Shown here: positions 10 through 19,519 of the stretch, piece by piece
Numbering within the stretch: position 1 is the stretch's first letter
How the letters are laid out: every line of letters begins with the position of its first letter
Assembly (NCBI GenBank): GCA_020049115.1
Contig: JAIFLK010000258.1
Location: 1 to 20,220 of the forward strand
DNA: 20,220 nt
Direction: 5' to 3'
DNA from: Chloroflexota bacterium
GTDB lineage: Bacteria; Chloroflexota; Anaerolineae; 4572-78; J111
Made by a program: the position numbers and the translations under genes
The notes under the pieces: generated by a model
Databases searched by the model: none
The model's input: the letters and a program-made list of their open reading frames with translations, nothing else
What the model was told of the DNA's origin: nothing

Positions 10-1683
10 CTACTTATAAAATATCCGCAAGAAAGGGCGCATGGCTAAATTAGGGTTATCAGAAGTGGCAAAGAGTTTACCATTATTATCATAACGGTCA
101 GGCGTATAAACTGCCAAACGCATAACCGTCGCGTTATCGTTATATAGCTCAATAAACTCAGCGGTCATATCCCACCCTTTTTCAGACCCTGACGGATTAA
201 TCTGGCTAATAGGCGCAACCCAATGATTTTTGGCGGGGCGGCGTTTAACATTCTGAACAGGAACAGGGGCGTTATTCCATGTAATACTATCCTTTGACCA
301 ATCATCTTGAATGGTAAAAAGTTCAATCCAAGTAGGATTGGAGGTTGGAGTGGGTTCATCCTGTTGAAAGAGCGTAAACCAAGCCGTCTGAATCTCCTTA
401 CCTGGCGGCATGGAGTCAAGCGGAAAGGTGATGTAATATTTGGAGGCACAAGGCCATAAAACCAACCTGGTTTGGTTTTGGATGTTGACCAAAGACTCAC
501 CCGCATAATTTTTATTGCCCCATTGCGTCCAAAAGTCTAAACCTTGCCCACAATTTTGCCCCCCACCTACCACCGCGTCAATAACCATAGGTATCATCAC
601 CCCATTATCAACCCCATTTTGAATGGTCATGCTAATGACTTCCTCTCCAGGAGTAATGGCGGTGGGATTAAAAACCAACCGCCCCCACGTACTAGGCTTA
701 TCATCCACCGCCGCCAAAGGCCAATGGGTGGTCGTAATGGGTACAGTGATACCCACATTATCACGGTCATAAACCGCAACAGCCATGCGCCATTCGGTAT
801 CATTGGCAGGGCGTTCCATCAACCCTAACGCCGTAAAAGGAAGCGAGAAATTAAGCCGCCACCCTAAATCATCTTTTATATTCGTGTTAAAAACTCCCTC
901 AAAAGCAGTCCCCGTTGTAAAGGTGAAAGCCTGATTTTCTTGCCACCCCGTGCCATTGCCTTGATAAATGGCTCTAGTATTCGCATCAGGTGGGTCATTT
1001 GAGGCCGTTTGCGCCACAAATTTGTAATCATTCAAGCCAGGTTGCGCCTCATTTTGGCTATTCAAGTGCAGATAAATCGTAGCTCCATCCCATTTAGCCA
1101 AATCATTTTTAATGGGGTTAGCCTCCCGCCATAAATAACGGTCAGTAACATTTACCCACACATTTAAAGCATTGTCATCATACCCCACCCGCACATCGGT
1201 ATAATTATTCGCCTCATCAATTTTACCAAACCAGGTCATGCCCATCTCTTGCACCGCTATCGGCGTAGTCGTGAGACGAGGCAAATAAGGCGCATTGATA
1301 CGGCGGAACGGGTCAGGCGGAATAGGGGTGGCGGTAGGGATAGGCGTATCAGTGGGCGTGGCAGTGGCGGTCGCGGTCTCGGTGGCCGTTGCCGTCTCCG
1401 TCGCGGTGGCTGTCTCCGTCGGCGAAGGCGTTACGGTAGCCGTGTTGGTGGGCGAAGGAGGCATGGTGGCGGTATTAGTGGGTGAAGGCGTTGCCGTCGC
1501 GGTGCTAGTGGGCGTATTGGTTGGCACTGTATTAGGAGTGCCACTATCACTACTTATCATGGGCAAATAAACGGCTGTGCCTTGTTGCGCCCCCACTTGC
1601 ACGGGGGCAAAACTCAGCCCAATAACCACTAAAACGCCTACACCCATCGCTAAAAGCCCATGTAATTTTTGAGTATGTGTCAT
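10..1683 (-). CDS. Secreted protein with a Thr/Pro-rich linker, a CBM9/DOMON-like carbohydrate-binding-like middle domain and a C-terminal DNRLRE-like domain
   Basis: 557-aa ORF. Hydrophobic N-terminal signal peptide (LLAMGVGVLVVIGLSFAPVQVGAQQ), then ~90 aa of TPS/TNTAT repeats. The segment 'VRVGYDDNALNVWVNVTDRYLW' resembles the CBM9-like family-9 fold. The C-terminal 'DSITWNNAPVP' matches the TWNN(R/A)P signature of DNRLRE domains. Domain calls are from memory of the family motifs. Confidence 0.6.
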   Translation of the reverse strand: MTHTQKLHGLLAMGVGVLVVIGLSFAPVQVGAQQGTAVYLPMISSDSGTPNTVPTNTPTSTATATPSPTNTATMPPSPTNTATVTPSPTETATATETATATETATATATPTDTPIPTATPIPPDPFRRINAPYLPRLTTTPIAVQEMGMTWFGKIDEANNYTDVRVGYDDNALNVWVNVTDRYLWREANPIKNDLAKWDGATIYLHLNSQNEAQPGLNDYKFVAQTASNDPPDANTRAIYQGNGTGWQENQAFTFTTGTAFEGVFNTNIKDDLGWRLNFSLPFTALGLMERPANDTEWRMAVAVYDRDNVGITVPITTTHWPLAAVDDKPSTWGRLVFNPTAITPGEEVISMTIQNGVDNGVMIPMVIDAVVGGGQNCGQGLDFWTQWGNKNYAGESLVNIQNQTRLVLWPCASKYYITFPLDSMPPGKEIQTAWFTLFQQDEPTPTSNPTWIELFTIQDDWSKDSITWNNAPVPVQNVKRRPAKNHWVAPISQINPSGSEKGWDMTAEFIELYNDNATVMRLAVYTPDRYDNNGKLFATSDNPNLAMRPFLRIFYK

Positions 1684-1728: not shown

Positions 1729-1761
1729 AGCCCTTATAAGGCTTAAAGCCTTATAAGGGCT
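1729..1761. repeat. Perfect hairpin, 14-bp stem and 5-nt loop (agcccTTATAAGGc-ttaaa-gCCTTATAAgggct); member of the TTATAAGG hairpin repeat family
   Basis: Reverse complement of the left arm equals the right arm exactly. The same core recurs at 2955, 6408, 7679 and 12337. Confidence 0.8.
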
Positions 1762-1869: not shown

Positions 1870-2913
1870 TTACGCTGCTAACCGTGACCCAACATCACGA
1901 AAATTGGGGTCTTCAGCATAAATTTTCTCAAACTCTTTACGGGCTTGGGCGCGCTTACCTGAAGTTTCGTAAGCAACCGCCCGCCAATAAGCTGCCTCGC
2001 GCAATAATTCAGGGCTGCGGTCTTTCTTACTTCGCAAGGCTTTAGTCAAAACCGTACTCGCCGCGTCCGCCATGTTTTTGGCTAACAACGCCCGCGCATA
2101 CATGGTAGCAATCGCCAATGTTACGTTATCTATCACTTCGACTTTGCTGGCGCGCTCAATTAGCTCATCCCAGGCTTGGGCTTCGGCGTATAACTCACAT
2201 AACGATAACGTTAACACTGGCTCAGGGGCTAATGATTCCACCTCTTCTAACAAGGCAATCGCTTCATCCATGCGCCCTTGTGTTTGATAAAGTTCCGTCA
2301 ACAATAACACGGGGGCTAACCCTTCCACTGGCACTGAGGCGGTCAGCGTGGGCGTAATGGCAATGTCAATACAGGCCCCCGCCAAATATTTCTGCATCAA
2401 CGCGCTCGGATATTCCGCGTCACTTTGCACAATACTTTCTAATAAAGGCAACGCGCGGCGTTGGTCACTACTACTGCGCTTGCTCAAAATATCTGCCGCT
2501 AATAAGGCCGCGCCAGGTTCAGTGGCAATATCCAAAAATATGCGTAAGGCTTCGTCCAGGTTATTCGCCTGATAAAACTCTAACGCCTTCGCTAACCCTT
2601 TTTCCTCCGTTGAGGCAAACATGCCAGGGCTAGGCAGGGCAGGGGCAGTTTGAGTAGCAACGGCATTATTAGCCGCAGCCTTACTATTTCCGCCGCCGCC
2701 AAATAATGTCCAAAAATTAAGGCCATAGCCCGCCCCAATTTGTTTCGTATAGCTCAAACCCGTCCCAGGAATACCCACCGTAAAACTTGTTCCCGTTGGC
2801 CCCGTATTTAACCGTAAGCCTTGCACGCCAACGCTGGCCCCCACGCCCGTTTTACTCACATTCAAACGGAAAAGTTTACCTAATGAAATTCTTTTTTGAA
2901 AACGAAACCCCAT
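1870..2913 (-). CDS. DUF4236 domain protein with C-terminal TPR-like helical repeats
   Basis: N-terminus 'MGFRFQKRISLGKLFRLNVSKTGVGASVGVQGLRLNTGPTGTSFTVGIPGTGLSY' matches the DUF4236 signature (RF.K...G.RLN.SKSG.s.SvG..G...n.G..G....GIPGTG). The remainder is Ala/Leu-rich with TPR-like periodicity (e.g. ...AYWRAVAYETSGKRAQARKEFEKIYAEDPNF). Confidence 0.65.
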   Translation of the reverse strand: MGFRFQKRISLGKLFRLNVSKTGVGASVGVQGLRLNTGPTGTSFTVGIPGTGLSYTKQIGAGYGLNFWTLFGGGGNSKAAANNAVATQTAPALPSPGMFASTEEKGLAKALEFYQANNLDEALRIFLDIATEPGAALLAADILSKRSSSDQRRALPLLESIVQSDAEYPSALMQKYLAGACIDIAITPTLTASVPVEGLAPVLLLTELYQTQGRMDEAIALLEEVESLAPEPVLTLSLCELYAEAQAWDELIERASKVEVIDNVTLAIATMYARALLAKNMADAASTVLTKALRSKKDRSPELLREAAYWRAVAYETSGKRAQARKEFEKIYAEDPNFRDVGSRLAA

Positions 2914-2928
2914 GATAATATTCCTTTA

Positions 2929-2944
2929 TATTAGTTAGTTAGTT
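2929..2944. repeat. (TTAG)4 microsatellite giving stop codons in all three frames on both strands
   Basis: ttagttagttagttag sits between the start of the DUF4236 gene and the stop of the MVP-like gene. Confidence 0.7.
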
Positions 2945-2954
2945 AGCGAGTCAG

Positions 2955-3013
2955 CGTTAAGCGAGTCAGCGATTATAAGGCTCAAAGCCTTATAATCGCT
3001 GACTCGCTTAACG
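2955..3013. repeat. Perfect 27-bp-stem palindrome (cgttaagcgagtcagcgattataaggc-tcaaa-reverse complement), a composite of the GCGAGTCAGC repeat and the TTATAAGG hairpin core
   Basis: Reverse complement of 2955-2981 equals 2987-3013. 'agcgagtcagcg' occurs twice in tandem (2944-2955, 2961-2972) and again, inverted, at 5481-5553. Confidence 0.85.
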
Positions 3014-4393
3014 TGTCTCAATGCTTAAATTAACGTCGGCGGGGGTGAAATAAAGGGTCGCATTACCCTGACTCACCGCCTCTAACGCCTCTTGTTTTCG
3101 TAAGGTATTAAAAATCGCCAGCTTATTTGGCAAAGGTAACTCCTCGCCTAACCCATTAAGGAAGGCTTGCACCTTAAACGCCTCCGCCTCACCCGCCGTC
3201 AACGCCTCCACTTGGGCATGGTCACGCCGCAAGGCCAACAGTTGCCCACGCATCTGCTCCGCCTCAATTTCACCTTTAATCTGTTTCAACTTCGTTTCAT
3301 TTTCACTCTCTTGCTTTTGTTGCCGATTGAGACGGTTGGTGGTTTCAGTGATAATTTCCTGTAATATCCGTTGCGTGGCGGCATCTTTACAGGAAATAGA
3401 GCGCACCTCCACCGCATTGAGTTGCACCCCGCGCTCGGTATAAAACGTCATATCACTTTCTAACACCGCCTGATAAATGATTAAATTGAAACTCGCCAAA
3501 AATTTCTCCAGCGTCACCTGTGACACCGATTGAATGATGGCACTGCGAGCATGGGAGCAAATATCGCCTGGCGTGTCATCGGTTTTGCTAATCATGGCCT
3601 CAAAATCCGCCACCGCCCAAAAAAAGGTAATGCCAATCGTTAATTCTACGTTATCTTGAGTCCGCGCCTCAAACTCATACCACATGAACTTCGGACGCAA
3701 ATCAAACTTGGTCAGGCGCAAATCGCGACGCTCTTTATGCAGCCCCGTTGACCAGCGCAACTCCACAATTTCGGAGTAAGGGTCAAGAAAAAAGGCACGG
3801 TCAGGGTCGGTGCCGCGCTTAATGGTATATTTCCCTGTTCTATCACGGATAATAACGACTTCGTTATCTTCCAATAAAATCCGTTGACGCACTTTTACAA
3901 TTTCTTGTTGGGCGGTTGGAATAAAAACTTGCGGTGTCGTAATTAACTCCAACTGCCCCGTATGCGTATCACGCACCATGACGGCAGTTTGTTCATCAAT
4001 GTTAATCCCATCTTCAACTTTAACGATGATTTGCTCAGTCGGTTGCACATAGATACTTTGCTCCCCTCGTTCCACCCGCACCATGCCTGTTTTTTCGTCC
4101 ATGATACGAACATATTGATGTTTTTTCAGGGGAACAGCCTGTAATTCAACATCAATTTCATCAGTTGCTGACAGAAACAATAATTTTGGCCCAATTTCAA
4201 TCCGTTTTTCACCTGTTAAAACATTAAGCACCCGTACATAATCGGTTGGCCCCAAAACAGTCGCCTTACGCCGCTTCACCCGCCAAAAGGGGCGCGCCCA
4301 ACATTGGCCAGGCCCATTCACCACCCACCGTTTGCTAAAGGCTGCAATGAGTAACTGTTCGTCATCTTTGAGAAAGTATAGCCAGGGAATCAT
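3008..4393 (-). CDS. Major vault protein (MVP) homologue, short bacterial form: ~4 MVP repeats, an SPFH-like shoulder domain and a cap-helix region
   Basis: 461-aa ORF. Repeated ~50-aa modules 'YVRVLNVLTGEKRIEIGPK', 'YVRIMDEKTGMVRVERGEQSIYVQP', 'AVMVRDTHTGQLELITTPQVFIP' and 'VVIIRDRTGKYTIKRGTDPDRAFFLDP' resemble MVP repeats. The segment 'TQDNVELTIGITFFWAVADFEAMISKTDDTPGDICSHARSAIIQSVSQVTLEKF' aligns with the eukaryotic MVP shoulder (…ADHARLQLQLAYNWHFEV…[27 protein letters not shown]…). A following E/Q/A-rich helix resembles the cap-helix. Confidence 0.65.
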   Translation of the reverse strand: MIPWLYFLKDDEQLLIAAFSKRWVVNGPGQCWARPFWRVKRRKATVLGPTDYVRVLNVLTGEKRIEIGPKLLFLSATDEIDVELQAVPLKKHQYVRIMDEKTGMVRVERGEQSIYVQPTEQIIVKVEDGINIDEQTAVMVRDTHTGQLELITTPQVFIPTAQQEIVKVRQRILLEDNEVVIIRDRTGKYTIKRGTDPDRAFFLDPYSEIVELRWSTGLHKERRDLRLTKFDLRPKFMWYEFEARTQDNVELTIGITFFWAVADFEAMISKTDDTPGDICSHARSAIIQSVSQVTLEKFLASFNLIIYQAVLESDMTFYTERGVQLNAVEVRSISCKDAATQRILQEIITETTNRLNRQQKQESENETKLKQIKGEIEAEQMRGQLLALRRDHAQVEALTAGEAEAFKVQAFLNGLGEELPLPNKLAIFNTLRKQEALEAVSQGNATLYFTPADVNLSIETR

Positions 4394-4412
4394 GCACGCT
4401 CCTTCTGAATGA

Positions 4413-5357
4413 TTATGATTGAGGCGATTGCTCAGGAAATTTCACTAGGGCGTTAAAATCAGTTAGGGTGGGAACGGTGAAAAGATGGTCACTGAGTTGG
4501 TCAAAGGTGGTGGAGTCCTTAATGCTGTTTAATTTTGCTATCAGGTAAGGGGGCAGTGGCCCAAATCTAAGTACCAATAAGCGCATGAGCAATTGTCTTT
4601 TCCCTTTAACCTCGCCAATGGCTTCGCCTATGGCCTTACCTTTCGCTTTGGCTTTAAGGGCAATACGTTCACTCCATGTTAATTCAACTTGAGCTAAATG
4701 AGTCATAATATCACTTTCTCCTACAGCTATTTTTTTACTAGGTAAATAGGTTTGGACTAGATTGACTAGATAAAGTTGGTCGGCTAATTCTAGTTCACTA
4801 TTCATCACCGATTCTAAGGCGGCTAATTTGACCGCAGCTTTCTCATGACTTGCTGATTTCATTAAGGTGGCGAGGGTAGCGGCAACGGGGTCGCCACTTA
4901 TCAGGTAATCATGGCTTGGTAAATCCCGTATGCCCACTTGCCCATAACGAAAATGAATCAATTCCTCCTCGAACAACGATTCACGATAACTTTTCCAGGC
5001 TAGGCCACCTACTTTGGGCAATAAAACCAGAGTTAAGGGTAAAATGGGCTTTTGGCGTAAAACCCGTAGTAAAGCATAATATTCAAAAAGACGTTGGGGC
5101 AAAGTAGTTTTATTTTGCTTTTCTATCTCTACATGAACAATAATGACTTCAGGTTGCCCACTAAATGTTTCGACTTCGGCCACCACATCGGGAATACGGA
5201 GGAAGGTATTAGGCAGGTTGATGATGAGTTCTCTTTCTAAAAAGATGAGGGTTTTAAAATTAAGATGAATTGCTTTTTCAGGAAAAAATAGCGTGACAAA
5301 TTCGGGTAGGAAACGATGAAAGAACTCTTTGAACAAACGGTCATGTAAGGTTGACAT
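4413..5357 (-). CDS. Rpn-family recombination-promoting nuclease / putative transposase (PD-(D/E)XK N-terminal domain plus C-terminal DUF4351)
   Basis: 'MSTLHDRLFKEFF' matches the Rpn/YhgA N-terminal HDxxFK motif. 'VIIVHVEIEKQ' is the PD-(D/E)XK core. The C-terminal 'KGKAIGEAIGEVKGKRQLLMRLLVLRFGPLP…' resembles DUF4351. The ORF track starts 14 codons further upstream at 5399; the Met at 5357 fits the family N-terminus better. Confidence 0.6.
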   Translation of the reverse strand: MSTLHDRLFKEFFHRFLPEFVTLFFPEKAIHLNFKTLIFLERELIINLPNTFLRIPDVVAEVETFSGQPEVIIVHVEIEKQNKTTLPQRLFEYYALLRVLRQKPILPLTLVLLPKVGGLAWKSYRESLFEEELIHFRYGQVGIRDLPSHDYLISGDPVAATLATLMKSASHEKAAVKLAALESVMNSELELADQLYLVNLVQTYLPSKKIAVGESDIMTHLAQVELTWSERIALKAKAKGKAIGEAIGEVKGKRQLLMRLLVLRFGPLPPYLIAKLNSIKDSTTFDQLSDHLFTVPTLTDFNALVKFPEQSPQS

Positions 5358-5480
5358 GAGAAAATTATAGCCGTAAAACCACCTAGAGACAATAAACATG
5401 GCGTTATTTTGTAAGGCAAGGGGTTAGCCTAATTTTGACATATTTTAACTATTATGGAAAATCAAGCTAAATCAAACTTT

Positions 5481-5553
5481 AATAGCGAGTCAGCGAGTCA
5501 GCTATCAGCAAAAAAGCTGACAGACTGAACGCTGACTAGCTGACTCGCTGACA
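5481..5553. repeat. Imperfect inverted repeat built from GCGAGTCAGC units (agcgagtcagcgagtcagctatcagc … gctgactagctgactcgctga)
   Basis: Direct tandem 'gcgagtcagc' on the left arm and its reverse complement on the right. It lies in the divergent intergenic region between the Rpn gene and the histidine phosphatase gene and belongs to the same family as 2944-3013. Confidence 0.7.
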
Positions 5554-7480: not shown

Positions 7481-7667
7481 GCCTAGCTGTCCTAGTACAC
7501 CGTTCATTTAATTATTAGTATATCCGAACAGACAGGAATGTCTGTTCCACCGTTGGTAGGTCAGACATTCCTGTCTGACAATGTCTGTTCCACCGTTGGT
7601 AGGTCAGACATTCCTGTCTGACCATATACTAAAAACTAAATGAACAATCCACTAGTACAGCTAGGCA
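7481..7667. mobile_element. MITE-like non-autonomous element: ~43-bp terminal inverted repeats around two tandem ~44-bp units, each carrying small palindromes
   Basis: Left end 'gcctagctgtcctagtacaccgttcatttaattattagtatat' versus the reverse complement of the right end 'gcctagctgtactagtggattgttcatttagtttttagtatat' (~80% identity). The internal unit 'aatgtctgttccaccgttggtaggtcagacattcctgtctgac' occurs twice in tandem and contains the palindromes acagaca…tgtctgt and gtcagaca…tgtctgac. Confidence 0.6.
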
Positions 7668-7828: not shown

Positions 7829-8707
7829 ATGAAGCTAACAAGTCGGTTCGTCCCATTAATATTGGCACTATTGTTCATGGTCGCCACCCAACCCTTCACC
7901 CAAGCACAAGGCGAATTGCCCTCGGTGCGGGTCGTTCACACCTCACCCGATGCGCCACCGTTTGATGTGTTAGCCAACGGCAGGTTGACCTTTCCCCAAG
8001 TGAAATATGGCACGGCTTCGGACTATCGCCCCTTTAATGCGGGCAATTATAACCTATTACGGGTATTGACGACAGGCTTAACCTCCACCGCTGTCTTAAC
8101 GATGGGCCTTGATTTGAGTTTCAATACTCATTATAGTGTCTTAATGTTAGGGCGTGCCACCAATTTGAGCGCGCTCACATTGGTCGATGACCCCATCATG
8201 CCGCCGCTAGGTCAAGCTAAATTACGTTTTGTTCATGCTGCCCCTGATGCCCCTGCCGTAGACATTGCGCTTCGAAATGGGCGAGTGCTGTTTAGTAATG
8301 TGGCTTATAAGTGGATTGGGGCTTATCAAACGGTGGCCGCGGGAACGTATGATTTAGAAATTCGTGTGGCTGGCACAACCCAAATTATTACGACAATTCC
8401 CCAGGTACAATTAAATTCCGCCACCGTCCACACCATGTTAGCCATTGGCCTATTATCAGGCCCGCAGCCAGGTCTTAACGTACTTTTGTTAAATGATGTT
8501 TCTAGTGGCTTAACCCCGCCCATGGAGTCCAAATCTTTAGATTTGACTGCGCCACATTACTATTATCACAACTACACCCCCGCCGACCTGAACCAGTATC
8601 CACCGCCCGTTTATTATCAACCCCAGGAAATACACCCCCTGAATTATTACGAAGTTGCTCCCAATTCCGCCTATCCCCCTCCGTGTCCTACCAGGCGTTG
8701 TTGGTAA
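7829..8707 (+). CDS. Secreted DUF4397 domain protein
   Basis: Signal peptide 'LILALLFMVATQPFTQAQG'. The repeats 'VRVVHTSPDAPPFDVLANG' and 'LRFVHAAPDAPAVDIALRNG' match the DUF4397 signature (VR.VHASPDAP.VDV..DG). The C-terminus is Pro/Tyr-rich. Confidence 0.65.
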   Translation: MKLTSRFVPLILALLFMVATQPFTQAQGELPSVRVVHTSPDAPPFDVLANGRLTFPQVKYGTASDYRPFNAGNYNLLRVLTTGLTSTAVLTMGLDLSFNTHYSVLMLGRATNLSALTLVDDPIMPPLGQAKLRFVHAAPDAPAVDIALRNGRVLFSNVAYKWIGAYQTVAAGTYDLEIRVAGTTQIITTIPQVQLNSATVHTMLAIGLLSGPQPGLNVLLLNDVSSGLTPPMESKSLDLTAPHYYYHNYTPADLNQYPPPVYYQPQEIHPLNYYEVAPNSAYPPPCPTRRCW

Positions 8708-8779: not shown

Positions 8780-9487
8780 ATGACCATCCCCATGTGGATG
8801 CAAGCAAATGCCTGGCGCGAGATTTTTGCTCGTGCCTTTGAAAATTGGCCTGTTCAAGTCAACATCTCCCCCGAATGGCTCATTAATCCTGAGACTCATC
8901 GGCGGCTGAAATTAGATTTATTTTACCCTGATGCTCAGATCGCGGTGCGTTTTGAGGGGATACAGCCCGAAAAGCGGAAAGCCCGCCCTAGCTTAGAGGA
9001 AGAAGAACAACAACGCGCCCGCGAGACCGCGAGAGTGGAGGTTTGCCGTGAGCATGGCGTTCATTTATTGTTACTTGATGCCGCCTCAGAGGAAATTGCG
9101 GATGAGTTCCTACAAGTAGACCTCATTTTGAGCCAAGCCCAACGCGCCCTTACCGATGTAACCTGGCAAGAAAATATCAAGACCGCCCGCTTCAAAATCG
9201 CCCAAATTGGGCGACCTTTAACCCAAATTAACTCTCTTAAAACGTATGCCGATTTATGGGAAGACCGCCAATTTCAAATGGCACTCCCTCAAGAAAATCA
9301 AAAACCTGCTGCCGCCCCCACCATTTTTACCGTGGGCATGGATGTCAATCATCAGCTATTTGGCCTCGGTACAATTTTACAAGTTGAGCCAAGTGCCTCC
9401 GATGTTATCCTCACGGTGGATTTTTTGGAAGCGGGTAAAAAGATGTTTGCGGCCAGTTTAGTGGCAGATAAATTGAATACATTGTAG
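8780..9487 (+). CDS. Hypothetical protein: N-terminal DUF559/Vsr-like restriction-endonuclease-fold motif and C-terminal UvrD-C/DUF3553-like (Tudor-like) motif
   Basis: 'LKLDLFYPDAQIAVRFEGIQPEK…RETARVEVCREHGVHLL' resembles the DUF559 pattern (D.y.P.…lAiE.DG…). The C-terminal 'FTVGMDVNHQLFGLGTILQVEPSASDVILTVDFLEAGKKMF' resembles the UvrD C-terminal / DUF3553 pattern (G.rV.H..FG.G.v…V.F…G.K.l). Both are weak motif-level matches. Confidence 0.4.
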   Translation: MTIPMWMQANAWREIFARAFENWPVQVNISPEWLINPETHRRLKLDLFYPDAQIAVRFEGIQPEKRKARPSLEEEEQQRARETARVEVCREHGVHLLLLDAASEEIADEFLQVDLILSQAQRALTDVTWQENIKTARFKIAQIGRPLTQINSLKTYADLWEDRQFQMALPQENQKPAAAPTIFTVGMDVNHQLFGLGTILQVEPSASDVILTVDFLEAGKKMFAASLVADKLNTL

Positions 9488-9639: not shown

Positions 9640-9745
9640 CAAACGAAATGCAGTATAGTACATGGTCAGACAAGAATGTCCGACCTACCGACGGTAGAAC
9701 AGACATTCTTGTCTGTTCGGATATGCTAGAAATTAAATAAATAGT
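9640..9745. mobile_element. Degenerate single-unit copy of the 7481-7667 MITE-like element, in opposite orientation
   Basis: 'gtcagacaagaatgtccgacctaccgacggtagaacagacattcttgtctgttcggatat' is ~90% identical to the reverse complement of 7524-7583. The flank 'gctagaaattaaataaatag' resembles the reverse complement of the element-1 terminal repeat. Confidence 0.5.
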
Positions 9746-9888: not shown

Positions 9889-10980
9889 ATGTTATGGCAA
9901 AGCTACTATACCCCTGAATCGCTTGATGAAGTTTTAGACTTGCTGGCAGAACATCGTGAAAAAGGGCCTCGTTTATTGGCTGGCGGCACGGATTTAATGG
10001 TTGAAATTGAGCGTAGCCAGCAACCCCCCAAAATTGTCATTGATGTAAGTTGTATCCCTGGTTTAGATACTATTTGGCAAGATGAACAAAAAAATATCCA
10101 TTTAGGGCCATTAGCCACCCATAATCAAGTGGTTGGCTCTAAATTATGTGTCCAAAAAGCCTTCCCTCTTGCCCAAGCATGTTGGCAAGTCGGCTCACCC
10201 CAAATTCGTAATCGTGGCACGGTGGCGGGCAATATCGTAACCGCGTCGCCCGCGAATGATACCATTACGCCTCTCGTGGCTTTGGGCGCGACCCTGACCC
10301 TGAAAAGTGTGCGCGGCAGTCGCGCCGTCAAAATTGATGAATTTTTCAAAGGGGTGCGCTCAACGGTGCTAGAACCTGATGAAATGGTGGTTGATATTAG
10401 CTTTCCCGCGCTCAATGGCTACGAAATCGGCACATTTATTAAGGTTGGCTTGCGGCGCGCTCAGGCTATTTCCGTGGTAAACATTGCGGTAGTTTTGGGC
10501 ATGTTCGCCGATACCATTACTCGCGCTCGGATTGCTTTTGGTAGCGTTGCCCCAACGATTATCCGCTCTTTTGATGCGGAACGCTTTTTGAGTGGCAAAG
10601 TGATGACCCAAGAGGTCATTGACCGTGTGGGGGCGATTGCCGAGCAAACCATTTTTCCCATTAGTGATGTGCGCGGTTCCGCCGAATATCGCCGTTATAT
10701 GGTTAAAACCGTGACCCGCCATGCGCTGCAATCTCTCAGCCAAGGCACCGAGTCGGACATCTTTCCGCCCAAACCCGTTATGTTATGGGGCAAAACTAAT
10801 GGCTCATTTAAGCCGCATGAGGGTGGTTCAGTGGTGCATACGGTGGATAAAAATGAGCCGATTAGCACCACTATTAATGGTCAACCGCAGGCGATTAGCG
10901 GGGCAAATGGCAAAACCCTCCTCCGCATGTTACGCGAAAACGCGAACTTGACTGGTACGAAAGAGGGTTCGCGAACTTGA
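9889..10980 (+). pseudogene. Xanthine-dehydrogenase-family FAD-binding subunit (CoxM/XdhB-like). Its 3' end already encodes the start of the [2Fe-2S] domain; it is truncated by a frameshift from a 29-bp tandem duplication
   Basis: FAD_binding_5 motifs are present ('LLAGGTDLMVE', 'GTVAGNIVTASPANDTITPLVALGATL') and the CO-dehydrogenase flavoprotein C-terminal region is present ('RGSAEYRRYMVKTVTRHAL'). The tail '…[33 protein letters not shown]' corresponds to the N-terminus of the 2Fe-2S small subunit and then runs into SRT-stop. Confidence 0.7.
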
Positions 10981-10998
10981 CTGGTACGAAAGAGGGTT
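10941..10998 (+). repeat. Exact 29-bp tandem duplication (cgcgaacttgactggtacgaaagagggtt ×2) inside the fused FAD/[2Fe-2S] gene
   Basis: Positions 10941-10969 are identical to 10970-10998. 29 is not a multiple of 3. Deleting one copy reads through in frame as …[18 protein letters not shown]…. Confidence 0.9.
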
Positions 10999-11369
10999 GC
11001 GCCGAGGGCGAATGTGGGGCCTGTACGGTGATGTTAGATGGCATTGCAGTGGATAGCTGCCTCGTGCCAGCCCCGCGCGCCCATCAAAGTGAGATTGTTA
11101 CGATTGAAGGATTGGCGCAAGGTGAAACCCTGCATCCTGTTCAACAGGCATTTATTGATGAAGGCGCGGTGCAATGTGGTTACTGTACGCCAGGCTTTTT
11201 GATGAGTGGAGCTAATTTGATGGAAGAACGTAAACGCCCGACTCATGATGATATTAAGCAAGCCATTACGGGTAATTTGTGTCGCTGTACGGGATATTAC
11301 AAAATATTGCAAGCGTTAGAGCAATCCTGTGGCGTGGTTTCGGCCAAGCCTAGAATGAAGCATAATTAA
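10977..11369 (+). pseudogene. [2Fe-2S]-binding small-subunit (CoxS/XdhC-like) portion of the disrupted fused gene; the ORF begins at TTG and lacks its own N-terminal ~35 residues
   Basis: Plant-ferredoxin-type motif C-x4-C-x2-C-x11-C ([22 protein letters not shown]) and the second cluster CGYCTPGF…CRCTGY are present. The N-terminal β-grasp residues are encoded in the upstream ORF. Confidence 0.7.
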
Positions 11370-11406: not shown

Positions 11407-12330
11407 ATGACCACATTAACGCTAGAAATGGCTGAGACCACGAATTTAACTGAAACACCCTCTGACCCATACCTTTACGGTTGGCGACAGGTGACGCGTT
11501 ACGCGCCTGATGGGGAGATGGTGTTTGTGCTTCAGCCCTTAACCTTAGATGATATATTACACCCCCAAGAGGATGACCAACGGATGCACGCGCCTTACCA
11601 TGAACGAATTTGTCGTTATTTAGCCGATGTTTTTGCAACCTATTTAGCCCATGACCCGACTGTTCAGGTCTTTACTGATTTGCGGGTGGCGTGGAATCAT
11701 CCTTACATTGACCCGCATACACCTGATATTTCGGTGGTCTTTGGGGTGAATAATCAGGGGCAGGAATGGACTACTTTTTATGAAGCCAAAGAGGGAACGC
11801 GGCCAACTTTGGTGGTAGAAGTGACCTCACCCTCCACGCGATTGTTAGATTTGGTGGATAAGTTTGACGAGTATGAGCGCGTTGGCTTAGAGTATTACAT
11901 TATTATTGACCGTGTTAAACAGCGCAGTAATGTACAACGGCGAGTGTTAGGGTTTCATTGGACACCACAGGGTTATGAAAAGTTACCTTTGAATGAACAA
12001 GGTTGGTTGTGGTTAGAGCCTGTGCGGGTTTGGGTCACTTGGGAAGACGATGAAATAGTTTGTTATGATGAACAAGGCAAATCTATTCCTAATTATCTCG
12101 CTGTAACCCAGGCCTGGGTTGAAGCGGAGGCTAAAGCTGAGGCGGAGGCTACGGCGCGGGTTGAAGCGGAGGCTAAAGCTGAGGCGGCGGCTACGGCGCG
12201 AGTTGAAGCGGAATCTAAGGCGCATGCAGCGGAGGCCAAAGCTGAATCCGAAGTTAAAGCGCGGGTTGAACTTGAAGCCCGTTTACAACAGCTTGAAGCG
12301 GAGTTGCGCCGTTTACAAGGCAATAGTTAA
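11407..12330 (+). CDS. Uma2-family (DUF820) restriction-endonuclease-like protein with a C-terminal Ala/Glu/Lys-rich coiled-coil repeat extension
   Basis: 'RPTLVVEVTSPSTRLLDLVDKFDEYERVGLEYYIIIDR' matches the Uma2 core (P.l.vEV.SpsT…D…K…Y…Gv.EYwivD). There is a strong RBS aaggaggt 6 nt upstream. The C-terminal repeats are (VEAEAKAEAEATAR)n and end in LQQLEAELRRLQ. Confidence 0.7.
   Translation: MTTLTLEMAETTNLTETPSDPYLYGWRQVTRYAPDGEMVFVLQPLTLDDILHPQEDDQRMHAPYHERICRYLADVFATYLAHDPTVQVFTDLRVAWNHPYIDPHTPDISVVFGVNNQGQEWTTFYEAKEGTRPTLVVEVTSPSTRLLDLVDKFDEYERVGLEYYIIIDRVKQRSNVQRRVLGFHWTPQGYEKLPLNEQGWLWLEPVRVWVTWEDDEIVCYDEQGKSIPNYLAVTQAWVEAEAKAEAEATARVEAEAKAEAAATARVEAESKAHAAEAKAESEVKARVELEARLQQLEAELRRLQGNS
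12118..12290 (+). repeat. Tandem ~54-bp coding repeats (gaagcggaggctaaagctgaggcggaggctacggcgcgggtt…) encoding the Uma2 C-terminal coiled-coil
   Basis: Near-identical units are visible at 12118-12171 and 12166-12219, with degenerate units after. Confidence 0.6.
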
Positions 12331-14769: not shown

Positions 14770-14850
14770 GCCTCGGTGGCGGAACGGCATACGCAGCAGG
14801 TTGAGGGCCTGTGCCCGATGGGCGTGAGAGTTCAAATCTCTCCCGAGGCA
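14770..14850 (+). tRNA. tRNA-Leu (anticodon GAG), class II with long variable arm
   Basis: Acceptor stem GCCTCGG/CCGAGGC with discriminator A. D-arm GCG(G)…CGC. Anticodon stem GCAGG/CCTGT with loop TTGAGGG. Variable arm GCCC-gat-GGGC. T-arm GAGAG-TTCAAAT-CTCTC. No CCA is encoded. Confidence 0.8.
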
Positions 14851-14967: not shown

Positions 14968-17900
14968 TTAATACGTTCTTTGGAAAGTAACCTCAAAGGA
15001 GCTATGAAAAAGCGAAATAGCATTGGTATCACCATTTTCTTCACAGGTGCGGTTGGTGGCAAAGTCTGGGGTGATATGTTCGGCAATGTCGCTCGTGCCA
15101 CCCATTACTTGCACTTGATACGTTCCTTTGAACATGGCAAAATCAATGTGACCTGCTTCAGGCTGTCCGATCAAGTTAGTTTTAGTTTCGGTTTGTGGCG
15201 TAACAAAACCATCTGGTACGGGCGACCATTGGATTTTGATGGGTAGACCATTAATGCCTTGTCCAGAGGGGTCAATTACGTGGACAAATATATGGTGCTT
15301 GCCTTTGTTTTCGCAAGGGGTCAATTCCCGAATGCTGACCAAACGGAAATCCACATTGGGCGTGGCGGTGGCTTCAGGGGTGGGGGTGTCGGTGGGCGGA
15401 CGTGGAGTGCTGGTTTGGGGGATGGGGGTTTCTGTAGGAACACCCGTTGAGGTTGGCGTGGTGGTAGGTGTATCAACCATAGTCGGGGTACTGGTTGGGG
15501 TGGTGGTATCTGTGGGAGTTGGCGTATTGGTCGGGATGGGGGTCATGGTAGAGGTACTGGTGGCGGTTGGGGTGTCGGTTGGGGTGGGGGTTGGCGTGGT
15601 GGTGGGGGTGGTCGTCTCCACAAAGGGCAATGCAGCAGCCATGCCCGCAACCGCGCCGTCATCGCGCATTTGTTCGGCTATGGTACGGTTATCTCCTGGC
15701 AATGCGCCACCATCATTGAGCGAGGCGGCTAAAACATCCATAATGGCCCAGGGGAGCATGATACCACAGAGCCAGACAACGAATAAGATAACGAAAAGTA
15801 AACGAAATTTGGCCCCAATAGTACGTTTGGCAAACCACATAGAGACGGAAGTGCGATTGGATGGAGCGGCGGTGGCAGTGGCTTGTTTTTGTAATTTTCT
15901 ATTAGAAACGGCCTGCATTTGCGGCGCGATCTGGGGTGGGCGTTGTTCGGTAGAGATTGTACGCGGTGCAGGTTTGGCTACGGTTTCTAACGGCGGCGGG
16001 GTAGGATTAGACTGAACCACTGTTTTCTCTTTAGGTCGTCGCTTTTTGGCCGCTGTAGGCGCAACTTTAGTTGGCTCGGCGGGGCGGCGGTTAGAGCGAT
16101 TAGATGTGCCGCTAGTGGGCGCGGTGGGTTTAGAGGGGTTGCGCGGCGGAACAGGTGGCGCGACTGCGGGCATGCCTTGTGTAAATTGCGAGTGAGTGTT
16201 GGCGGGCTGAAAGGCTTGGGTGTGTTGGGAGTGAACGTTGGCGGGTGTAATAGGCTGGGTATGTTGCCCATGTACTGTTGGTTTGAGGGGCTGAGTGAGT
16301 TGCGAATGATTGACTGGCCCAGTCGGGCGGAGGGGCTGGGTGTGTTGACCATGCACGGCAGACGCGCTAGGGCGAATGGGTGGCGTATAGGCCGAAGGGG
16401 GGGACATGGGAGCCATGGGTTGGGTGAATTGGGAATGGTTGGGCGAGACGGCGGGGCTAATCCGTCGTGGTGGAGCCGATTGGGGGCGTGAGGGCGGCAT
16501 GGGGTGCAACGGTACAGGCGGATTGGCGCGCACGGGTACGGGCAAATTGCTTGGGTTGACGGGCTTAAGGCGTACGGGTGGTAGAGACAGGGCATGCCCT
16601 GTCTCTACGGGTAGCCCACGTTGACCAGAAGCGTTCCGCATACGATTCATGACCTCGTCTAACCGTTCACTTAAGAGACGGCTAAAAGTCATGGCGAGCA
16701 TGGGATAACGGCTGAGAAAGCGGTCAAAGTCATTTTTGGTCAGTACCCAAACTTCACTATCTGTAACTACTTGGGCGGTGGCGGGTTGCCCTTTGCCAGA
16801 GATGAGGCCAATTTCGCCCAGAAAGTCACCTGGCTTAAAGGTTTCTAACAACATGGCCCCTTGCGGAGTTGCTACCCAATGTTCAATTTGCCCTTTAGAA
16901 ATGAAATACATTTTATCGGCAGGTTGACCCGCTTGGTAGATGACTCCGCCTGCACGATAATAATCGGGGCGTAAATAAGAGGATAATTCATCTAATTGGG
17001 CGCGGGAGAGGCCGCCTAAAATAGCAATCTTTTGTAAGTGAGTTTCTGAGGTATAATCTTCTGCCGCCTTGAATTGAGCGCGTAAGGCTTGGCTGAGGGA
17101 GGCACTGAGTTGGGGATATTTGACCAACAGGTGGTCAAAATCAGCCCGATATAAGCCCCATAAATTGGTGTCAGCAATAGAGTAGGCGGTGAAGCCGCGA
17201 GTTTTGCCCGTGAGCAGTGCGGCCTCGCCAAAATATTCACCTTCCGTTAGGCGTGCTAGCAACTTCGTGGGGCGGCCTGGGGTTTCATCAAAAGTATCAA
17301 CCACGCCAGAGTCGATAATGTACATGGCATCGCCAGGCGCGCCTTGCGGAAAGATGATTTGCCCCGCAGGAACGTGACGTAATAAGAGTAAATTTGCCAT
17401 GTCATTGAGGGCGGCCTCGTCTAAATTGGCAAACATGCCGATTTGTTTCAGAATGGAAATAGCATGGGCTTGGTCAGCCGTATCTAAGCGGGAACTTAAG
17501 TTTTGACTTAAGTTGGTTTTAATGCTAGGGGTGGTTTCTACCAAAGCGGTAAAATCAGTTGGGCTAAGTTGCCAGATGATGGTTTCGGTGGCTGCTTGGG
17601 CGGTATAGGCATGGGGCTTGTTGGATAAAACCGCCATTTCGCCAAAGGCATCGCCTGGCATCAGTTCGGTAAAATCATTATCCAATTGGCCGAGCAATCG
17701 CACAATGCCCTGGTCAATGAAGAAAATGCCCTGCGGGGCTTCTCCGTCACGGTAAATTGTGCCGTGGGGGTAATAACGGCGCGGGATTAACCGTTGGGCG
17801 ATTTGGGCTAATTCATAGGGCGATAGATTTTGTAATAATTGTACTTGACTCAATTGCATGGTTAGCTGCGGATGATAAGGCACAATGGCGCGCTCCATCG

Positions 17901-18270
17901 CTAAACTGAGCGCGAGGCCAATTTCAAAATGCTCATCAATCACCTCGGTCATGGCGGAGGTGGTTAATGCCCAGGCGGTCACATCAGTGGTGGCTTGGGC
18001 GGCCATTGCATGGCTTTGACCTAAGAAAAAATCGGCCTCGCCTAACAAACTGCCTGAGCCTAAGTTGGCTAAAATTGTGCCATCACTGGCGACCAGTTTT
18101 ACCCAGCCTTCTTTAATCAAGTAAAGGGTATCGCTATCGCTACCGATTTGAAACAATGTTTCAGCGGGGCGATAGCTTTCCAGGCGTAACCGTTTGCCAA
18201 TAGCACGTTGAGCTTCCTCGCTCAAATGGGCAAATAGCGGACTATTTTTAATAAATTCTTCTTTCATCAT
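14968..18270 (-). CDS. Large membrane protein: four tandem cyclic-nucleotide-binding domains, Pro-rich H(S/G)Q(F/H/L)TQ repeats, one transmembrane helix, a Thr/Pro-rich linker and a Cys-pair C-terminal extracytoplasmic β-domain shared with the next two genes
   Basis: 1100-aa ORF. Four cNMP-binding modules each carry the (F/L)GE(M/A/I)(A/G)L phosphate-binding-cassette-like motif ('LGEADFFLG', 'FGEMAVLSN', 'FGEAALLTG', 'LGEIGLISG'). ~7 repeats of 'VNHSQLTQPLKPT / VHGQHTQPITPAN'. TM 'FRLLFVILFVVWLCGIMLPWAIM'. Linker 'TTTPTTTPTPTPTDTPTATSTS…'. C-terminal 'PCENKGKHHIFVHVIDPSGQGINGLPIKIQW…GHIDFAMFKGTYQVQV…NRTCEENG'. Confidence 0.7.
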   Translation of the reverse strand: MMKEEFIKNSPLFAHLSEEAQRAIGKRLRLESYRPAETLFQIGSDSDTLYLIKEGWVKLVASDGTILANLGSGSLLGEADFFLGQSHAMAAQATTDVTAWALTTSAMTEVIDEHFEIGLALSLAMERAIVPYHPQLTMQLSQVQLLQNLSPYELAQIAQRLIPRRYYPHGTIYRDGEAPQGIFFIDQGIVRLLGQLDNDFTELMPGDAFGEMAVLSNKPHAYTAQAATETIIWQLSPTDFTALVETTPSIKTNLSQNLSSRLDTADQAHAISILKQIGMFANLDEAALNDMANLLLLRHVPAGQIIFPQGAPGDAMYIIDSGVVDTFDETPGRPTKLLARLTEGEYFGEAALLTGKTRGFTAYSIADTNLWGLYRADFDHLLVKYPQLSASLSQALRAQFKAAEDYTSETHLQKIAILGGLSRAQLDELSSYLRPDYYRAGGVIYQAGQPADKMYFISKGQIEHWVATPQGAMLLETFKPGDFLGEIGLISGKGQPATAQVVTDSEVWVLTKNDFDRFLSRYPMLAMTFSRLLSERLDEVMNRMRNASGQRGLPVETGHALSLPPVRLKPVNPSNLPVPVRANPPVPLHPMPPSRPQSAPPRRISPAVSPNHSQFTQPMAPMSPPSAYTPPIRPSASAVHGQHTQPLRPTGPVNHSQLTQPLKPTVHGQHTQPITPANVHSQHTQAFQPANTHSQFTQGMPAVAPPVPPRNPSKPTAPTSGTSNRSNRRPAEPTKVAPTAAKKRRPKEKTVVQSNPTPPPLETVAKPAPRTISTEQRPPQIAPQMQAVSNRKLQKQATATAAPSNRTSVSMWFAKRTIGAKFRLLFVILFVVWLCGIMLPWAIMDVLAASLNDGGALPGDNRTIAEQMRDDGAVAGMAAALPFVETTTPTTTPTPTPTDTPTATSTSTMTPIPTNTPTPTDTTTPTSTPTMVDTPTTTPTSTGVPTETPIPQTSTPRPPTDTPTPEATATPNVDFRLVSIRELTPCENKGKHHIFVHVIDPSGQGINGLPIKIQWSPVPDGFVTPQTETKTNLIGQPEAGHIDFAMFKGTYQVQVMGGTSDIAEHITPDFATNRTCEENGDTNAISLFHSSFEVTFQRTY
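16130..16620 (-). repeat. Approximate span of the Pro-rich H(S/G)Q(F/H/L)TQ-type ~11-aa coding repeats inside the 14968..18270 gene
   Basis: Repeated 'HSQFTQ', 'HGQHTQ', 'HSQLTQ', 'HSQHTQ' in the translation. The low-complexity DNA generates spurious antisense ORFs (15987..16595, 16177..16491, 16406..16624). Coordinates are estimated, not counted. Confidence 0.4.
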
Positions 18271-18393: not shown

Positions 18394-19446
18394 TTATTTA
18401 ACTCCTTGTTGCAGCACCAGTTGCCACGCGGGCAAACTGTTCTGGCAAAGGGGTAGATTATTTAAGGTTATTTCGGGTATAGGTGGGGTAGTTTTCATAT
18501 TAACCACTTCAACCTGATAAGTTTCAGTTAATTTCATTTGAAAATCGGCATAGCCAGGCTCTATTTCGGGCTTGAAACCCGTGAATAAATGATCTTCACC
18601 ATTCGCCCAACTTACTTTAATTTCGATGCCTGGGATACCTTGACCGAGTGTATCATGAATATAAATTCTCAGCAATCCTGTGTTAAGGTTATCGCAGACT
18701 CCTTTAGAATGTTTGACTGCTAAAGGGGCGTTTAGGTTACGGGTTGGAGTGACTTTAGGGAGAAAGGAGTAGGGCGTAGGGAGTAAGGTGGAAGTAATGG
18801 TTGGACGTAAGGTGGAAGGAGTAAGGGATAGGGTGGCAGTGACCGTTGAGGAGTAGGGTAGAGGGATTAGGGTAGAAGAAGTAAGGGCTAAGGTGGCGGT
18901 CATGGTTGGGGTGGCGCGAGTGGGGGTGTTGGTGGGGCGCGGGGTTGGAGTAATAGTCGGTGTGGTGGTAGAGGTTGGCGTGGGAGTATTGGTTGCTGTG
19001 GGTGTGGTTAAGTAAGTTGACATAAGCGGTGATACTTTGCCCAGGGCTTGGGCTAATTCAACCAGTGCAGCGATGTCTCGGATGTCTCGCTCTTGATTTA
19101 TGTATGCTTCCGTAATAATAATGATGGTTTGGTTTATATTGGGGTCAGCGACGGCGGCTAATCGAGTTTGCGCCTGGTCTAGGTGATGATTATGGGCGTA
19201 GGCCAGGGCAATGAGCCGAATATAAATGGCTTTGGCTGATGGGCGCAAATCCGCAGGTGTGACTGGGAGGGGGCGAGGGTCAAGCAGCCAACCGTAGGTG
19301 AGTGATAAAGCCAAACCCACCATAAAACCAAAAAGAAAACCGCCCACCCACCAGGCACGGTCATGGGGATTTCGGCGCGGAGTGGGCTTAGACGGTTGAA
19401 CAACTTTGGACAAAGTTTGGTTTTTTAGGGTAGAAAGTAGGGGCAA
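18394..19446 (-). CDS. Membrane-anchored paralogue: short cytoplasmic N-terminus, one TM helix, extracytoplasmic helical region, Thr/Pro-rich linker and the shared Cys-pair C-terminal β-domain
   Basis: TM 'WWVGGFLFGFMVGLALSLTYGWLL'. Linker 'TTPTATNTPTPTSTTTPTITPTPRPTNTPTRATPT…'. C-terminal 'GVCDNLNTGLLRIYIHDTLGQGIPGIEIKVSW…GYADFQMKLTETYQVEV…NNLPLCQNS' aligns with the C-termini of the 14968..18270 and 19520.. genes. Confidence 0.65.
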   Translation of the reverse strand: MPLLSTLKNQTLSKVVQPSKPTPRRNPHDRAWWVGGFLFGFMVGLALSLTYGWLLDPRPLPVTPADLRPSAKAIYIRLIALAYAHNHHLDQAQTRLAAVADPNINQTIIIITEAYINQERDIRDIAALVELAQALGKVSPLMSTYLTTPTATNTPTPTSTTTPTITPTPRPTNTPTRATPTMTATLALTSSTLIPLPYSSTVTATLSLTPSTLRPTITSTLLPTPYSFLPKVTPTRNLNAPLAVKHSKGVCDNLNTGLLRIYIHDTLGQGIPGIEIKVSWANGEDHLFTGFKPEIEPGYADFQMKLTETYQVEVVNMKTTPPIPEITLNNLPLCQNSLPAWQLVLQQGVK

Positions 19447-19519
19447 TGCCTTGTGCTTGCCCCCATTGTGGGTAGGGACAAGCCCTACCCCTACTATCTA
19501 CTTTCTACCTTCTACCATT

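Follow-up and report, generated by a model that had tools for sequence, protein, structure and literature searches.

The window analysed here is a stretch of 20,220 nucleotides (nt) from a Chloroflexota bacterium (Anaerolineae; contig JAIFLK010000258.1 of assembly GCA_020049115.1). Near one end it carries four genes arranged head to tail on the minus strand, at 4413..5399, 3008..4393, 1870..2913 and 10..1683, which encode proteins of 328, 461, 347 and 557 amino acids (aa), respectively. The second of these is the subject of this report, as its product resembles the major vault protein (MVP) of eukaryotes. That resemblance was proposed in an earlier description of the locus made without database searches (the sequence-only reading), in which the open reading frames for the 461-aa and 347-aa proteins were correctly delimited.

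The MVP-like gene (3008..4393, minus strand) encodes a protein of 53 kDa with a pI of 5.6, and its stop codon occupies 3008-3010. A Shine-Dalgarno-like AAGGAG, read from the sequence, is situated on the same strand at 4399..4404, 5 nt ahead of the ATG start codon. Only 19 nt lie between the stop of the upstream gene and this start, and a spacer of 94 nt separates the MVP-like gene from the next, co-directional gene, whose 347-aa product contains DUF4236 and TPR domains.

Sequence and predicted fold of the 461-aa protein

The 461-aa protein was compared with the Pfam models, and three matches exceeded the respective cut-offs. Band_7 was the top single match (32.7 bits, cut-off 23.6; aa 227-366), followed by Vault_3 (29.7 bits, cut-off 28.8) and MVP_shoulder (PF11978; 26.5 bits, cut-off 25; aa 234-323). 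When the same domains were sought in an alignment of 75 family members, MVP_shoulder was found in all 75, Vault_3 in 52 and Band_7 in 51. A phmmer search with the single protein against all PDB sequences returned MVP chains at E values of about 1e-8, and a profile built from the 75 sequences matched MVP chains only, at 4e-19. The latter alignment forms one continuous stretch, from residues 61-423 of the query to residues 353-745 of rat MVP, a segment that we take to start at repeat 7, cross the shoulder and reach into the cap helix.

The fold was predicted from the family alignment as an AlphaFold2 monomer model, with a mean predicted local distance difference test (pLDDT) score of 86.3 and 225 residues scoring at least 90. 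According to DSSP, the model consists of β-strands to about residue 214, an α/β region at 225-335, a long helix at 338-414 and a further helix at 421-441. In a Foldseek comparison with the PDB, the top 12 matches were all MVP entries, with E values from 1.7e-25 to 2e-19. The best match to a non-MVP protein of the SPFH superfamily was HflK/C, at 6e-10, and no other SPFH protein gave a stronger one; a fragment of MVP comprising R1-R7 was matched at 2e-9. It is apparent that MVP entries rank first, and that the model carries MVP repeats in addition to an SPFH domain. The repeats, shoulder and cap helix that the sequence-only reading had taken as an MVP signature are thus borne out by Pfam, by the phmmer and profile searches of the PDB and by the predicted fold.

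The protein begins with a β-unit (aa 1-46; 4256..4393, minus strand) that is distinct from the canonical repeats. It contains a nearly invariant IPWxYF...EQ motif, and its strands are modelled with pLDDT values of 84-91. The insertions that distinguish longer aligned members of the family map to query residues 82-160 and never fall within this unit, which is presumed to form the open rim of an assembly. Four canonical 43-aa β-repeats of the MVP type follow (3746..4255, minus strand), at aa 47-88, 88-131, 131-172 and 174-216. These were placed by self-alignment and with a 43-position hidden Markov model (HMM) derived from 240 repeats of the family, the consensus being TLDDNEYVRVRDTLTGELRLERGEQLFFLAPTEEIVEVLEGIN. 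The number agrees with the approximately four repeats estimated previously, with the distinct N-terminal unit now added.

A linker and the shoulder (SPFH) domain occupy aa 217-337 (3383..3745, minus strand). The MVP_shoulder and Band_7 matches mark this domain, and HMMER alignments place it on the shoulder region of rat MVP. Directly behind it the model has a single long helix (aa 338-414, 77 residues by DSSP; 3152..3382, minus strand), in the position of the MVP cap helix, and this predicted helix is included in the alignment with rat MVP that extends to residue 745. Its pLDDT values are 76-87. It contains 11 E, 10 A and 10 Q among its 77 residues, in keeping with its earlier description as a cap-helix-like segment rich in these amino acids. 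The first half is highly conserved, with invariant T340, Q341, L344, I347, I348, E350-T352, N356, Q361 and N365. The succession of an SPFH (Band 7) domain and a coiled-coil helix is, of course, also seen in the canonical membrane SPFH proteins.

The C-terminal segment (aa 415-461; 3011..3151, minus strand) comprises the helix at 421-441 and a YFTPxDxxLxI motif. The motif is nearly invariant and is located within the last 15 residues, where the monomer model has pLDDT values of 41-55 (41-68 over the last 30 residues). Conservation of a motif that is unfolded in the monomer model is what would be expected if the segment became ordered only in an oligomer.

Eukaryotic MVP, as represented by the rat and human structures (PDB 4V60, 9R86 and 6BP7), has nine repeats, in contrast to the four canonical repeats and N-terminal unit found here. 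It is also longer, at about 860-890 aa as compared with 461 aa, and sequence identity is about 20%. The 461-aa protein thus does not have the eukaryotic architecture of nine repeats in some 850-900 aa. The individual repeats of eukaryotic MVP measure roughly 50-55 aa, and its cap helix is about twice as long as the helix of approximately 77 residues seen in the model.

The canonical SPFH cage proteins (HflK/C, QmcA, stomatin, prohibitin, erlin and flotillin) differ from the 461-aa protein in another respect: they have N-terminal membrane anchors where the latter has MVP repeats, and they align with it over only 104-239 residues. Approximately 220 residues of β-repeats precede the SPFH domain in place of such an anchor. 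No hydrophobic segment was detected in the 461-aa protein, the maximal 19-residue hydropathy being 1.4, inside the SPFH core; nor does the N-terminal sequence contain a Cys for lipidation or a signal-like segment. The protein is accordingly predicted from its sequence to be without a membrane anchor, soluble and cytoplasmic. Judged by sequence and predicted fold, it is a genuine, short MVP homologue of about half the eukaryotic length, and it belongs to the MVP branch within the SPFH superfamily.

Family range, repeat number and known relatives

A word-indexed protein search identified 483 relatives of the 461-aa protein. Among the best 120 of these, most are 460-476 aa in length and 59-66% identical to the query over the full length, and for most of the proteins of about 460 aa the identity lies at 59-84% over 99-100% of the query; those with named sources derive from Anaerolineae, Herpetosiphonaceae, Chloroflexales, Ardenticatenales and filamentous cyanobacteria, and the usual annotation is 'SPFH domain-containing protein' or 'HflC'. 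The 461-aa protein corresponds to this family of about 460 aa from end to end, including the N-terminal unit, the YFTPxD motif and the invariant columns. A scan of one genome per species yielded 71 MVP-like loci, which extend the range to Riflebacteria/Ozemobacteraceae, Cloacimonadota, Elusimicrobia, Muiribacteriota and others, and which include cultured Herpetosiphon species. An exhaustive profile search, covering 1.84 billion representatives and with family size counted at 50% identity, returned 1,271 proteins at E values of 1e-3 or lower, 729 at 1e-10 and 287 at 1e-30.

Members of the family are between about 460 and about 960 aa long. Relative to the query, the longer ones carry additional segments of 42-44 or 84-89 aa within the repeat region, and among 200 full-length members, those with four, five, six, eight and ten repeats have lengths of approximately 464, 507, 557, 630 and 714 aa, respectively. 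It is apparent that length in this family varies by whole repeats, of which there are four at the lower end and at least ten at the upper. With 121 of the 200, proteins with four repeats greatly outnumber each of the other forms, in a sample that is biased towards the query. Representatives of about 790-840 aa match the profile of the short family at E values of 1e-116 to 1e-141 and contain Vault_3 and Band_7.

Two of the larger proteins have additional features. P0311, a long MVP-like protein of 841 aa, bears a poly-ADP-ribose-binding (PBZ) zinc finger at its N-terminus (PF10283, E 2.5e-11), which draws attention because eukaryotic vaults carry PARP4 and because a human vault cage bound to ADP-ribose is present in the PDB (9mxj). 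P0313 comprises 3381 aa and has an MVP-like region at residues 166-617, which suggests that the MVP-like module is occasionally part of far larger proteins.

One member of the short family has been considered previously. The MVP-like protein of Herpetosiphon aurantiacus DSM 785 is identical to UniRef100_A9AUD4 (ABX03053.1, 462 aa), which is a full-length orthologue of the 461-aa protein: the two share 63% identity over residues 1-459 and agree in length and in the order of their domains. It is annotated as 'Band 7 protein' or 'SPFH domain-containing protein'. Daly, Sutherland-Smith and Penny (2013; PMC3762200) listed A9AUD4 among bacterial 'putative MVP homologs', reported that it folds like MVP in I-TASSER models and docks in RosettaDock, and remarked upon the Band 7 annotation. 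The novelty claimed in the sequence-only reading was, in consequence, overstated: proteins of this MVP-like kind are already known in silico, and the 461-aa protein adds a new member. Within the literature searched, the further statement that bacterial vault-like particles are uncharacterized holds, as no experimental work on prokaryotic MVP-like proteins was found there.

Longer bacterial homologues, of about 800-840 aa, have been treated in silico as well (Sokolskyi 2019, bioRxiv 872010), from Saprospira, Microscilla, Myxococcales and Oscillatoriales, as have MVPs of phages (bioRxiv 2023.11.10.566534). The members of at least 800 aa in the present data, which may derive from species other than those of the papers cited, resemble the short family in that they match its profile at about E 1e-115 with the same Vault_3 and Band_7/shoulder content; they differ in having more repeats and, in some cases, extra domains, such as the PBZ finger of P0311. 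Asgard archaeal MVPs with five repeats have also been described, and a 10-mer cup was modelled for them (Nat Microbiol 2026, PMC12962969). These are likewise short prokaryotic proteins with a cap helix, a shoulder and fewer repeats than eukaryotic MVP, their closed cup deriving from multimer modelling only. They are archaeal, unlike the 461-aa protein, and the likeness is one of description and not of sequence comparison.

Genomic context of the MVP-like gene

The gene downstream of the MVP-like gene (1870..2913, minus strand; 347 aa) is regarded here as a neighbour and not as a demonstrated part of a system. Pfam detects DUF4236 at aa 3-56 (E 2e-18) together with TPR families, in agreement with the domain content assigned to it earlier. 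In an AlphaFold2 model the DUF4236 domain is of low confidence and the linker at 60-95 is disordered, while residues 96-347 form a TPR solenoid with pLDDT above 90 and a β-hairpin at 181-195. The best fold matches are to the TPR domains of mycobacterial EccA proteins (E 2e-6). Proteins of this DUF4236-TPR family are about 340-350 aa in length and well conserved, and the named members are mostly from Anaerolineae and other Chloroflexota.

The pair of MVP-like and DUF4236-TPR genes was seen only in the organism of the window and in contigs L076/L077, where the two proteins are 69 and 57% identical, respectively, to those of the window and the flanking genes are otherwise different. In a neighbour-joining tree the window protein forms one small clade with P0002, P0006 and P0017, and both lineages that bear the pair fall within it. 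P0006, a member of that clade, has an Era-type GTPase gene downstream in place of the DUF4236-TPR gene, and the MVP-like genes of P0020, P0030, P0033 and P0035 have unrelated neighbours; adjacency is absent in five of the six close metagenomic relatives. With phmmer and a family profile, no DUF4236-TPR gene was detected within 10 kb of a full MVP-like gene at any of 69 species loci, the Herpetosiphon aurantiacus A9AUD4 locus, in contrast to the window, being without one within 10 kb. At least 1.3 kb of downstream DNA is available at 59 of the 69, and the pair is absent from all 59.

Examination from the side of the DUF4236-TPR gene gave the same picture. None of the three closest orthologues examined, at 62, 59 and 54% identity, lies next to an MVP-like gene, and no MVP-like gene was found within 6 kb of 80 further, more distant DUF4236 loci. 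A metagenome scan with two DUF4236-TPR proteins retrieved mostly proteins whose similarity is confined to the 60-aa DUF4236 domain; at three metagenome loci the relative is full length (36% identity at most), and none of these has an MVP-like neighbour. True orthologues were recovered better by a search of protein databases. The order of the two genes is thus not conserved beyond one small clade, and the synteny seen from both genes argues that their adjacency is clade-specific and most simply inherited, in place of a conserved module.

A glycosyltransferase gene is situated downstream of the DUF4236-TPR gene in L076 (6898-10805) and in L164 (5001-11029), the latter carrying one of the orthologues mentioned above. 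In L164 the downstream side includes a CBM96 gene as well, a feature shared with the window. Such a context hints at cell-envelope or polysaccharide functions for the DUF4236-TPR gene, and does not point towards the MVP-like gene.

The MVP-like gene itself is found in varied contexts, mostly among metabolic or housekeeping genes. When the neighbours at 70 loci were clustered, no family was common to more than 15, and the clusters were confined to subsets of the loci, with examples from Riflebacteria/Ozemobacter or from unclassified metagenome-assembled genomes. The gene usually stands alone, without a conserved operon partner. In the 20-kb window, to which these searches were directed, no TROVE (TEP1), PARP (PARP4) or vWA protein was detected, and an Rfam scan of the window found no known RNA family and hence no counterpart of vault RNA.

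The 94-nt spacer between the two genes contains a (TTAG)4 repeat (2931..2946), which places stops in all three frames of both strands. A perfect hairpin (2955..3013), its 28-nt arms joined by a 3-nt loop, overlaps the stop codon of the MVP-like gene; its predicted RNA folding energy is -57.4 kcal/mol (z -10.9 relative to shuffled sequences). A second copy of this hairpin, which resembles a repetitive extragenic palindrome (REP), lies downstream of the DUF4236-TPR gene at 1729..1761. The core, TTATAAGGyT-nnn-ArCCTTATAA, is flanked by variable GC-rich arms and occurs at 1729, 2968, 6404, 7681 and 12337, in each case intergenic and near a gene end; shuffled sequences contained no match. Five intergenic copies in 20 kb indicate that the hairpin is a generic REP-like repeat of this genome. 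Both the (TTAG)4 repeat and the palindrome had been recognized in the sequence-only reading, with the palindrome given incorrectly as 27 bp, and the repeats were said to bracket the gene pair. In fact the (TTAG)4 repeat and the hairpin at 2955-3013 lie between the two genes, and one hairpin copy follows each gene, so that the copies separate the genes and do not enclose them.

The hairpin at 2955-3013 was considered as an intrinsic terminator and rejected, as no U tract follows it and it was not called in a terminator scan. REP-like hairpins of this type may stabilize or punctuate transcripts. The equivalent spacer of L076 contains no matching hairpin. Near the genes, consensus scans for promoters and terminators did not exceed the counts obtained from shuffled sequence and were not used. 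Short direct and inverted repeats of the GCGAGTCAGC type were also noted in two intergenic positions, at 2946-2970, where they flank the hairpin after the MVP-like gene, and at 5483-5552, in the divergent promoter region between 5399 and 5568.

The gene immediately upstream (4413..5399, minus strand; 328 aa), co-directional with the MVP-like gene, had been called an Rpn nuclease gene. A gene is indeed present there, but the assignment is weak, with both TIGR01784 (20.1 bits, cut-off 52.1) and DUF4351 (22.1 bits, cut-off 25) below threshold, and the product is best described as a DUF4351 or weakly Rpn(YhgA)-like protein. Its relatives, mostly from Caldilineaceae, are annotated as DUF4351 domain-containing or as 'predicted transposase YdaD', and a search of PDB sequences with the 328-aa protein gave nothing meaningful. 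The prevalence of Caldilineaceae among these relatives also suggests a Caldilineae-like member of the Chloroflexota as the source of the window. It adjoins the MVP-like gene only in this organism (contigs L072/L073).

Two readings of this neighbourhood deserve to be weighed. The MVP-like and DUF4236-TPR genes might form a functional two-gene module, a shell with an adaptor or cargo comparable to TEP1 and PARP4 in vaults, as the sequence-only reading had suggested. Their common direction and close spacing are in keeping with such a module, as are the recurrence of the pair in L076/L077 despite different flanks and the general role of TPR domains as protein-binding scaffolds, of which the EccA domain, the best fold match, is one. 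Against this stand the data presented above, namely the absence of the pair from the species loci, from P0006 in the same clade and from the other four close relatives named, the different neighbours of the closest DUF4236-TPR orthologues (L164 keeping the downstream side instead) and of the 80 further DUF4236 loci, and the position of the -57 kcal/mol hairpin and the all-frame stops between the two genes. The proposal that the DUF4236-TPR protein is a partner or cargo is contradicted by these observations; synteny has already largely refuted the two-gene module, which we consider very unlikely.

The MVP-like gene might instead belong to a mobile element or an anti-phage defence system, in which it would serve as an SPFH-type effector or scaffold alongside Rpn-like and Uma2-type nucleases. 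The Rpn-like/DUF4351 gene that ends 19 nt upstream, a Uma2 endonuclease gene at 11407-12330 and the phage-encoded MVPs reported by others (bioRxiv 2023.11.10.566534) could be cited in its favour. PADLOC, applied to three genes, gave no match for the MVP-like or the Rpn-like gene and only a weak OloA match for the TPR protein, and no relatives were detected in IMG/VR viral contigs by a scan with the family alignment that relies on two peptide patterns and could miss distant phage MVPs. The restriction of the Rpn-like neighbour to this organism and the metabolic or housekeeping surroundings of the gene elsewhere also count against a defence role, as does the G+C content, which shows no island boundary around the MVP-like gene. 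Among the loci sampled, moreover, family members were not enriched in defence islands or prophages. Such a role is therefore, in our estimation, highly improbable.

Several further features of the window were recorded. The 557-aa product of the last of the four genes (10..1683, minus strand) is Pro/Thr-rich and contains CBM96 and CBM9 domains. Long Pro/Thr-rich linkers are present in minus-strand open reading frames including 10-1683, 14968-18270 and 18394-20212, and appear in the DNA as GGTGGnGTn-type repeats (families D1 and D2); the 1,100-aa protein encoded at 14968-18270 has four cyclic nucleotide (cNMP)-binding domains. Two 82-nt inverted repeats, 88% complementary, are located at 7503-7584 and 9660-9741, 2,075 nt apart, and enclose the genes for a DUF4397 protein (7829-8707) and a PcrA/UvrD tudor-domain protein (8780-9487); the enclosed segment could be a small mobile or invertible one. 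A perfect 43-bp tandem duplication is found at 7537-7622, and a perfect 29-bp tandem duplication (10941-10998) is situated exactly at the junction of the genes at 9889-10980 and 10977-11369, which encode a protein resembling the flavoprotein of carbon monoxide/xanthine dehydrogenases and a [2Fe-2S] subunit, respectively. The only tRNA gene in the window is that for tRNA-Leu, at 14770-14850.

Proposed assembly of the MVP-like protein and its implications

The SPFH-plus-helix proteins whose structures have been solved all form ring-shaped domes, and in MVP the repeats lengthen the dome into a barrel, two halves of which join via their N-terminal repeats (bioRxiv 10.64898/2025.12.12.693869). By analogy with these, the 461-aa protein is best regarded as a soluble, cytoplasmic, short SPFH protein of the MVP type that most likely self-assembles into a ring or cage, a view that we hold with some, but not great, confidence. 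Monomers would pack side by side through their shoulder domains and through a parallel barrel of cap helices, and the conserved C-terminal segment would close the apex. Closure of the apex in an oligomer would account for the conservation of a C-terminal motif that the monomer model leaves disordered. The four repeats would form a short barrel wall, the height of which would be set by repeat number, and the N-terminal unit would constitute the rim, so that two cups may pair rim to rim as the halves of MVP do. By the same analogy, formation of a ring or cup is reasonably probable; closure of two cups into a vault-like cage is conceivable but doubtful.

Several points weigh against this interpretation. 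In the single-sequence Pfam comparison, Vault_3 and MVP_shoulder exceeded their cut-offs by only 1-1.5 bits. These margins are small, yet the MVP signal is consistent across the family, as is apparent from the domain matches of the 75 aligned members. Ring formation, subunit number and closure of two halves are all argued by analogy; an estimate of subunit number from the length of the cap helix was considered and set aside as too speculative. As the 43-aa repeats are shorter than those of eukaryotic MVP, the geometry of the wall may differ. Aromatic and hydrophobic residues (IPWLYFL) make up the extreme N-terminus, which could be a contact surface for a membrane or a partner instead of a rim. 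Finally, no cargo, RNA or partner was identified here for the MVP-like protein.

The N-terminus bears most directly on the alternative that the protein forms a half-cage docked to the membrane, that is, a single dome like those of HflK/C, stomatin and flotillin, with its rim on the cytoplasmic face of the membrane delimiting a patch and with the repeats as a spacer wall. Every SPFH family except MVP is membrane-attached, and some eukaryotic vaults are membrane-associated in situ (bioRxiv 10.64898/2025.12.12.693869). The conserved IPWxYF is rich in interfacial aromatic residues, and Band_7 was, as mentioned above, the top single Pfam match. The aromatic N-terminus is, however, modelled as a β-strand inside the first unit with a pLDDT of 84, and the protein has neither a transmembrane or strongly hydrophobic segment nor an N-terminal Cys. 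Moreover, the repeats of MVP stand in for the anchor of other SPFH proteins (bioRxiv 10.64898/2025.12.12.693869), and MVP is matched far better in fold than are the membrane SPFH proteins. Taken together, these observations make a membrane-docked dome unlikely, and a soluble ring or cage is preferred.

A bolder form of the preferred reading may be put forward tentatively. The four-repeat protein might be a natural 'mini-vault', a closed cytoplasmic cage of two halves, the height of which would be tuned across the family by the number of 43-aa repeats, from four to at least ten; we regard this as an attractive proposal that may well prove incorrect. If it were so, the DUF4236-TPR protein could be an adaptor recruited locally in a small clade of Chloroflexota.

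Vaults are among the largest particles of eukaryotic cells, and their function and origin are still unclear. Their bacterial relatives would offer a simple, genetically testable system, within which the four-repeat version, at 53 kDa and soluble, would be the easiest to express and to image; the cultured Herpetosiphon aurantiacus DSM 785 carries the 63%-identical orthologue. The family is of moderate interest because it is large, modular in length, experimentally uncharacterized and present in a cultured organism. The series of lengths by whole repeats suggests a built-in ruler for cage height, which would interest engineers of protein cages. Should the mini-vault proposal be true, these proteins would represent a class of prokaryotic nanocompartment separate from both encapsulins and microcompartments, and they might reflect the ancestral state of vaults in eukaryotes.

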